A stretch of 64,000 nucleotides of DNA from Escherichia coli (GTDB lineage Bacteria; Pseudomonadota; Gammaproteobacteria; Enterobacterales; Enterobacteriaceae), in NCBI RefSeq assembly GCF_003790525.1, contig NZ_CP033635.1, one strand, 5' to 3'. Each line of letters opens with the position of its first letter. Positions within the stretch are counted from its first letter, which is position 1. A program made the position numbers. Below, one piece after another: positions 22,401 through 25,400 of the stretch.

Positions 22401-25400
22401 AAATAGTAAAAAGATAGTAATGAAAAGATAAAATTAACTTTTTTAAAATAGAATATAAACTCATCACTTTATCACTCGATTAAACAATAAAATACAGTAA
22501 ATCAATGGGATTATATTAATCAATGACACGACAATTAACTTAGACACAGCTATTCCAACAACACCAAATATGTTAGTCAGATAAAATGTTATAACAAGAG
22601 ACGGTATAAGCATATATATATGCAATTTACTTATAAAACCTTGCCGATCACTCATATTTAAAAAAACATATACAGGGCAAAATATTGCATTAATAATCTG
22701 CGTCATAACTAAAATAATTAACACTTCGCTAGCATTACTGTATTGAACACCAAATATAGATAATATCAGCCCTGAAAAAAAGGGAAACAGAAGAGCCATT
22801 AAAACACATGGTATCATTATGAAGAACATAGCTTTTTTAGTTAGCTCTTTTATTTCATTCATTTTACTTTGGCTGTATAAACTGGCGACCTTAGGTGCCA
22901 GAATTGTGCTAATTGACATTGCAAATAAATTTATAACCAAGGATATTCTATCAGACACAGCAATAATAGCGACATCAGCAGCTGGGAGCAACAAACCGGA
23001 AAGTACAACATAAGATTGAACAATCAGCATTCCTAATGAGTTACCAATGAAATACTCTGATAATTCTTTCAGTCTAAACGGTATTGACTCTGTTTCTAAC
23101 CGATTGAAATCGTCCCTAAATTTATAATACGAGTATACCCCCCCCCCTCCTCCAATAAGAATAATTGAGAAGAAGTATGATAAAGACACCAGTAAAACAC
23201 TTTCATTTTTAATCAGAACAATAAGTAATACAAAAAAAATAAACAATAAGGGTTGAAATATATACTGCAGAACAACACTAAAAGTGACAAGACCTTGAGA
23301 CTGTAAAAAGGAATATAACAATATATTTACTGACGATGATATTATCAACAGAATCGCCAAACACCATGTATTTCGTAATAATAATTGTGGCGAAAAATAA
23401 TGAATTATAGGTATTAAAATGATAGATAAGATAATACTGGATATAACACTCCGTTTTATGCATCTAAGAAAAAAAACGCCTCGTGCTTTTAATGCATATT
23501 TAACTGAGGCACATTTTTTCAAAATTAAATTATTTTGTCCTAAAGAGGATAGGGACGATATTATTCCAGTTACTGATAATAGGAAGAAAACCCCACCAGC
23601 CTCACTCATATTGAGCGTTCTTGATATCATCACACTCGTTGACAGCGCAAGTATAGCGCCGAATATCCTCAACACAAATACAGTTTTAATTGTAAACATT
23701 AACTTCTCGTTATTTACCCAAAGACCTCTTTGCAACAAATAATAGGGGGGAGGGTATAGATACTACCCCGCAAGACGCAAAAAACAACGCTACCGCCCCT
23801 GGCTTAACAGCTACCAGTTCACTAACACAAACTTATAACATGGCAATCTTAATAAATTCGTCTCTAATAAAACAAGAGACCGTTTTCTAAATCACATGAA
23901 GCAAAAAATCACCATAAAAGATCTAAACATCATCTGATATTTTAAACATTAGCTTAGATAATCGGTTGACGACTTTCATATTACTATTTTCTCCCGCCTT
24001 TTATCTTCATTAAAAATCATTTATAATTATTTCTTCTATTTTACCACGGAATTTTGTGCCTAGCATAATGTTTCTCAAACCATACTTCACAAACGCCTGC
24101 ATATAGCCCATTTTTTTGCCGCAGTCGTAACTGTCGCCAGTCATCAGCATTGCATCCACAGCATGTTTTTTCGCCAGTTCGGCAATGGCATCAGTCAGTT
24201 GAATACGTCCCCATGCACCAGGCTGAGTACGTTCCAGTTCCGGCCAAATATCGGCAGAAAGCACATAACGACCTACGGCCATGATATCTGAGTCCAGCGT
24301 CTGCGGCTGATCCGGTTTTTCGATAAATTCAACAATGCGGCTGACTTTACCTTCGCGATCCAGCGGTTCTTTGGTCTGAATGACGGAGTATTCAGAGAGA
24401 TCGCCCGGCATACGTTTTGCCAGCACCTGGCTGCGTCCCGTTTCATTGAAGCGCGCAATCATAGCGGCAAGATTGTAGCGCAGCGGGTCGGCGCTGGCGT
24501 CATCGATAACAACGTCCGGCAATACCACGACAAATGGGTTGTCACCAATGGCCGGTCGCGCACACAAAATGGAGTGGCCCAGACCTAAAGGTTCGCCCTG
24601 ACGCACGTTCATAATGGTCACACCCGGCGGGCAGATGGATTGAACTTCCGCCAGTAGTTGACGCTTCACGCGCTGTTCAAGAAGAGATTCTAATTCATAA
24701 GAGGTGTCGAAGTGGTTTTCGACCGCGTTCTTGGACGCGTGAGTTACCAAGAGGATTTCTTTGATCCCTGCAGCCACAATCTCGTCAACAATGTACTGAA
24801 TCATTGGCTTGTCGACAATCGGTAGCATCTCTTTGGGAATCGCCTTAGTGGCAGGCAACATATGCATCCCAAGACCTGCTACCGGTATAACTGCTTTTAA
24901 ATTCGTCATTCTTTTCCTACCTCTAAGTGGCTGATAGTGCGTAAATTATTGCCATAGGTTAGCCAACGGTATGGCTATATGCCAAAGCTTAGTACCGCAT
25001 AACTTTGATTAAACCTTACGATAACACTACACACCATCAGCATCTGGGTTACTCGGATTACTCGGAAATCCACATACTGATAATTTAATCAGTACCTCTT
25101 TCCGAATAATCGTAGTCCAACCTAGTCCTTTTTTCTCTGACTCGTCTGCATTACTCAGAAACAAACGTTATGTCGTCTTTTTTGGCATGGACGAATTCAT
25201 ACTGCAGAGTTCGATCCAGACCTTGCGACAGCGTATACGGTGCAACAAAACCTGACGAATGCACTTTCGTTGCGTCAAACTGTGTAGTTGCGCAGAACTT
25301 TTTCACGCGCACAGAGCTGACAGCGTATTTTTTGCCCATAATTTTGCTCAGGATATCAAAGCAATATCCACCCAGCATTCCTAGTGGGTAAGGCAAGTGC

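Follow-up and report, generated by a model that had tools for sequence, protein, structure and literature searches.

JUMPstart elements (Hobbs and Reeves 1994; Rfam family RF01707) are 39-nt sequences of polysaccharide leaders, characterised by an upstream GGTAGC, a short stem and a 3′ GGCGGTAGCGT. In the ops/RfaH system (Bailey 1997; Artsimovitch and Landick 2002; Zuber 2018, PMC5995543) the octamer GGCGGTAG is carried on the non-template strand in the leader of a long operon, and it is the single-stranded form of this strand, exposed when the elongation complex pauses, that is recognised: a small ops hairpin flips out T6 and is bound by the RfaH N-terminal domain. Recruitment of RfaH is abolished by the substitutions G4C, G5A, A7T and G8C. 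The U11 pause is due to T11 and G12; G12C eliminates this pause but does not abolish RfaH recruitment in vitro, and RfaH is able to load at C9 and G10 too. In a reporter assay each single ops substitution except G2C reduced stimulation by RfaH, and TG occupies ops positions 11-12 in every validated E. coli RfaH target (PMC5995543). The same chromosomal arrangement as described here is found in strain CFT073 (Hustmyer 2022, PMC9765446), in which the colanic-acid operon lies directly upstream of a wzx-first O-antigen operon and each has an ops site in its leader. ChIP-seq of RfaH in CFT073 gave signal at only eight leader ops sites, including those of wzx (O-antigen) and wza-wcaM, and none at 34 ops-like sites in coding regions; RfaH travels with polymerase through the operon and counteracts silencing of elongation by H-NS/StpA (PMC9765446). 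The colanic-acid operon has also been described as subject to a JUMPstart-RfaH mechanism in work citing Stout 1996 and Hobbs and Reeves 1994 (PMC9976346).

We analysed a 64,000-nucleotide stretch of Escherichia coli DNA (contig NZ_CP033635.1, hereafter the window). Its positions 13000-26500 match several E. coli chromosomes at 100 % identity, and the wzx and wzy genes of these chromosomes carry O21-family annotations. The window is an ordinary his/O-antigen/colanic-acid polysaccharide region of E. coli O21, and gene coordinates were transferred from the annotation of an identical O21 chromosome, that of strain GF4. On the minus strand the order is wzzB, ugd, gnd, the six-gene O21 cluster, a first JUMPstart, galF, an epimerase gene, wcaM back to wza and a second JUMPstart, beyond which lies the divergent yegH on the plus strand. 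The O21 O-antigen operon (18328-23699, minus strand; wzx, four glycosyltransferase genes, the last of them at 18328-19068, and wzy) is AT-rich and about 5.4 kb long and begins with wzx (22464-23699, ATG at 23699), while the colanic-acid operon from wza to wcaM (26304-49048, minus strand; wza ATG at 49048) extends over 23 kb. GC content is 27-33 % in the former and mostly 53-56 % in the latter. Between the first JUMPstart and the colanic-acid operon are galF (24010-24909, minus strand, stop at 24010) and the gene for GlcNAc-PP-undecaprenol 4-epimerase (gne epimerase; 25151-26146, minus strand), both of which lie upstream of the O-antigen ops and hence outside the unit that it would control. A good promoter-like site (TGGATA, 16 nt, TATAAT, 10/12) is present at 26279-26252, just 5′ of the epimerase gene. 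Neither wcaM nor galF is followed by a predicted terminator-like site.

Other features of the window include the His operon leader (RF00514, 131.6 bits, 6892-7015, plus strand) and the sRNA STnc240 (RF02074, 68.2 bits, 4520-4594, minus strand), as would be expected in this part of the chromosome. Within the colanic-acid operon, cpsB and the phosphomannomutase gene cpsG are separated by a gap in which the Rfam algC RNA motif is matched over its full length (RF02929, 34672-34721, minus strand; 77.3 bits, gathering score 33.8). Three assemblies labelled Arthrobacter sp. (GMC3, N199823, B1805) include small contigs that have 99.8-99.9 % identity to window positions 17916-24838 and look like E. coli O21 contamination of public assemblies.

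The whole window was scanned against Rfam 15 at curated thresholds. RF01707 (gathering score 35) had exactly two matches, both on the minus strand, full-length (model positions 1-38 of 38) and about 21 bits over threshold. The first, TAGTGAACTGGTAGCTGTTAAGCCAGGGGCGGTAGCGTT, lies in the O21 O-antigen leader at 23786-23824 (56.4 bits, E = 2.9e-10), 86 nt 5′ of the wzx ATG, and the second, CAGTGTATTGGTAGCTAAAAAGCCAGGGGCGGTAGCGTG, in the colanic-acid (cps/wca) leader at 49226-49264 (57.3 bits, E = 1.6e-10), 177 nt 5′ of the wza ATG; both are in non-coding leader on the sense strand. The sequence-only reading had placed a repeat with an adjacent agctacca upstream of wzx and of wza. Its spans are correct within 2 bases, the GF4 annotation bears out wzx after the first site and wza after the second, and the proposed membership of the JUMPstart family is upheld for both leaders by full-length matches above the gathering score. 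The repeat is a 19-base string, acgctaccgcccctggctt, at 23787-23805 and 49227-49245 (minus-strand reading AAGCCAGGGGCGGTAGCGT), with agctacca at 23809-23816 and 49249-49256. It is the longest word common to the two intergenic regions (about 310 and 657 nt), between which a shared exact 19-mer is expected by chance about 7e-7 times, and it also occurs in polysaccharide cluster leaders across Enterobacterales, Aeromonas and Tolumonas. To call the two elements near-identical is somewhat generous for the 39-mers, which agree at 32 of 39 positions and differ at positions 1, 6, 8, 17-19 (the loop) and 39, the last being ops position 12. Alignment of the two leaders is at chance level outside the element, with no homology found beyond the 39-mer. 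Both copies carry the upstream GGTAGC, as TGGTAGCT, on the minus strand at 23810-23815 in the O21 copy and 49250-49255 in the cps copy; this repeat is part of agctacca and also supplies the loop of the Rfam stem together with its 5′ half. Of 100 distinct JUMPstart 5′ halves that were sampled, 98 have GGTAGC or a version of it with one base changed.

We thus observe directly that both elements are present, where and on which strand they lie, and to which family they belong: the O-antigen and colanic-acid leaders each carry a genuine JUMPstart/ops site on the sense strand. Nothing essential separates the two from the described family, although the first base of the O21 copy is T in place of C and its last base T in place of G. 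In K-12 the rfb (galF-rfbB) JUMPstart occupies the same position after galF and its 39-mer is identical to that of O21 at 34 of 39 positions; the K-12 element differs in its GTA loop and in having G at ops position 12. CFT073 belongs to another serogroup, so that its O-antigen genes and leader flanks differ, and there RfaH has been located by ChIP at the wzx and wza leaders. The most probable explanation, to which we assign a probability of about 0.93, is that the two repeats are standard JUMPstart elements of the his-linked polysaccharide region, each with an ops site at which RfaH loads. The original observation is confirmed as real and its interpretation as essentially right and already known, these being textbook JUMPstart/ops sites before both sugar-polymer operons; such sites have reportedly been known in O-antigen and colanic-acid leaders since 1994-96.

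The ops octamer GGCGGTAG is found on the minus strand at 23790-23797 and 49230-49237, in untranslated, intergenic leader in each case. The sequence-only reading was correct in finding it in both leaders but loose in assigning it to the transcribed strand, since the octamer is on the non-template strand, the minus strand being the sense strand of wzx and wza as the RfaH mechanism requires. Extended to 12 nt, the cps site is the canonical GGCGGTAGCGTG (49226-49237, minus strand), while the O21 site is GGCGGTAGCGTT (23786-23797, minus strand; G1 at 23797, T12 at 23786), in which T replaces G at position 12. Both copies match the 12-nt consensus at positions 1-11, and the T11-G12 dinucleotide associated with the consensus pause is present in the cps copy (GCGTG) and absent from the O21 copy (GCGTT). 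The two ops sites are therefore not equivalent. A U-rich tract, GCGUUGUUUUUUGCG, directly follows the O21 ops (23775-23786, minus strand). It is preceded by a weak hairpin of only 4 bp and no convincing terminator was found there; the tract could add a pause beside the variant ops.

The alternative that survives best, although we regard it as unlikely, is that the O21 ops is decayed or weakened, the G12T change removing the pause so that RfaH loads poorly and the short operon is largely independent of RfaH. Such a reading draws on T12 itself, on the TG shared by all validated targets, on the loss of the U11 pause in G12C and on an operon length of only about 5.4 kb; moreover, since nearly all ops substitutions lower stimulation, the O21 site could fall short of the assumed strength. 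T12 is also rare. We counted it among 5426 complete E. coli genomes using 30-mers designed so that every 28-base BLAST word spans position 12, a requirement that ties the count to two loop variants and to 2982 of the 5426 genomes. With the GTT-loop prefix G12 was present in 747 genomes and T12 in 48, and with the K-12-type GTA-loop prefix in 2153 and 34, giving T12 in about 2.7 % of the 2982 countable genomes (82 against 2900 with G12). Across species, among the 120 matches listed for the 19-mer, one genome per species, position 12 was G in 108, A in five, T in four and C in three.

Against decay of the site, every O21 genome found has T12 (34 full-length matches; exact 30-mer), and this base recurs before at least four other clusters, namely O130 wzx, a wecB/wecC-first cluster, a group 1 capsule wzi-wza cluster and an IS1-disrupted locus, the downstream sequences of which differ; the first three of these clusters are intact. 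A change that is rare yet recurrent before different clusters is evidently a tolerated variant rather than a one-off lesion. The RfaH-contacting core, ops positions 3-8, is intact in the O21 copy, and both the survival of recruitment in G12C and the additional loading at C9 and G10 speak for continued function. Because G12C still recruited RfaH in vitro, the lack of T11-G12 in O21 lowers certainty about the efficiency of the site and not about its membership of the family. Having kept all RfaH-contacting bases without the G that drives the U11 pause, the O21 site would probably retain RfaH loading, which may be less efficient. It is also conceivable, if speculative, that the G12T ops of O21, O130, the wecB-first cluster and the group 1 capsule cluster is a natural tuning allele of O-antigen expression. 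In that event RfaH might load through a different kinetic window, for example by pausing at C9 or at the O21 U-tract GCGUUGUUUUUUG, and O-antigen expression would be lower or differently regulated.

We consider it improbable, and somewhat more so than a weakened O21 site, that the element acts mainly as a structured leader RNA, for instance as a protein-binding or processing hairpin, and not through ops in DNA. Rfam describes the family as ‘JUMPstart RNA’ and models a 5-bp stem (cUGGu/gCCAg; YUGGY/GCCAG). Either copy is able to form this stem, and the C/U difference between O21 and cps at position 8 leaves pairing with G intact. All five pairs are possible in 93 of 100 distinct 5′ halves, with C/U variation opposite G that needs RNA wobble; this count is no valid test of covariation because the 3′ half of the cross-species sample was fixed by the search pattern. 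However, the 39-mers fold no better than their shuffles (z = +0.54 and -0.03), nor do the whole leaders (z = +1.46 and -1.38), and structural and biochemical studies locate recognition at the non-template strand of the DNA (PMC5995543). An ops mechanism at the level of DNA is the best-supported explanation. That the repeat is a chance occurrence or mobile-element remnant with no regulatory role is a generic possibility, to which the recurrence of GGCGGTAG five further times in the window might be added, but it is refuted by conservation of the 19-mer in polysaccharide leaders from Enterobacterales to Aeromonas and Tolumonas. The minute chance expectation and the roughly 21-bit excess over the Rfam threshold given above, together with the nature of the extra octamers, also speak against it, and we give it practically no weight.

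The window contains seven GGCGGTAG octamers against 1.43 expected. Those outside the two leaders are all in coding sequence and lie in wzzB (15018-15025, minus strand), as a tandem overlapping pair in wcaI (36431-36445, minus strand, starts at 36431 and 36438), antisense in yegH (49817-49824, minus strand) and in yegD (60688-60695, plus strand). They were considered as additional RfaH sites and rejected, as all five are coding, with one overlapping pair and one antisense copy, and none has T11-G12 or the 5′ half of a JUMPstart, and as the ops-like sites in CFT073 coding regions gave no RfaH signal; we treat them as coincidental.

The two elements had also been taken to pinpoint the 5′ ends of the transcription units. 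This did not hold, as ops lies inside the transcribed leader, downstream of the promoter, and only bounds the 5′ ends: the motif must be transcribed, which merely places the starts upstream of 23824 and 49264. Known RfaH operons have their promoter 5′ of ops; CFT073 has sigma-70 peaks upstream of ops, and one promoter of hly is about 1.6 kb upstream of hlyA. Promoters were searched for by consensus scans and a relaxed custom scan. The best sigma-70-like site 5′ of the cps JUMPstart is a weak match (TGGAGA, 16 nt, CATAAT, 9/12; 49353-49380, minus strand), from which a start is predicted near 49346, about 82 nt before the JUMPstart. The cps leader region has fewer sigma-70-like sites than its shuffles, and this one is the only such site in the leader. 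The GF4 annotation calls a 49-aa hypothetical protein at 49356-49505 (plus strand), within the yegH-wza intergenic region; from this location and its overlap with the predicted cps promoter, the call is probably an artefact. Between the galF stop (24010) and the O-antigen element (23824) the scans gave no convincing promoter, candidates being confined to the 3′ end of galF. An extended -10-like motif, TGnTATAAG, occurs at about 23843-23835, just 5′ of the O21 element, with no -35. The O21 intergenic region cannot be aligned to that of K-12 outside the JUMPstart, so a promoter from K-12 or O7 is not simply transferable, and a literature search for transcription-start data gave nothing useful. 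Given only weak promoter candidates, we claim no transcription start for either operon.

If the two standard JUMPstart elements operate as in the described systems, polymerase would start at an upstream promoter and transcribe the leader, and at ops the exposed non-template strand of the paused complex would fold into a small hairpin to be read by the N-terminal domain of RfaH. RfaH, a paralogue of NusG, would then open and stay on polymerase across the whole operon, excluding NusG and Rho, suppressing pausing, counteracting silencing by H-NS and helping to recruit the ribosome. The expected outcome is expression of the distal genes of both the O21 operon and the much longer colanic-acid operon. 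We infer from homology to the wzx and wza of CFT073 that both operons of this strain are probably RfaH-dependent; rfaH itself is outside the window. The wza locus of CFT073 is silent in the wild type and shows RfaH signal only in an hns stpA mutant (PMC9765446), so the cps site is best regarded as conditional. The low GC content of the O21 operon marks it as the H-NS-prone type of DNA that RfaH counter-silences, and is consistent with a need for counter-silencing. No strong Shine-Dalgarno sequence was found at wzx or wza, the first genes of the two operons, which would fit ribosome recruitment assisted by RfaH.

For annotation of the O21 region the ops sites would delimit where RfaH control begins. 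Beyond this the two elements matter little, being the RfaH loading sites expected in an ordinary O21 region. Position 12 of ops is treated as invariant in validated targets; nevertheless a few percent of O-antigen and capsule leaders in E. coli naturally have T there, and these leaders are ready-made natural variants for probing the role of the ops pause.
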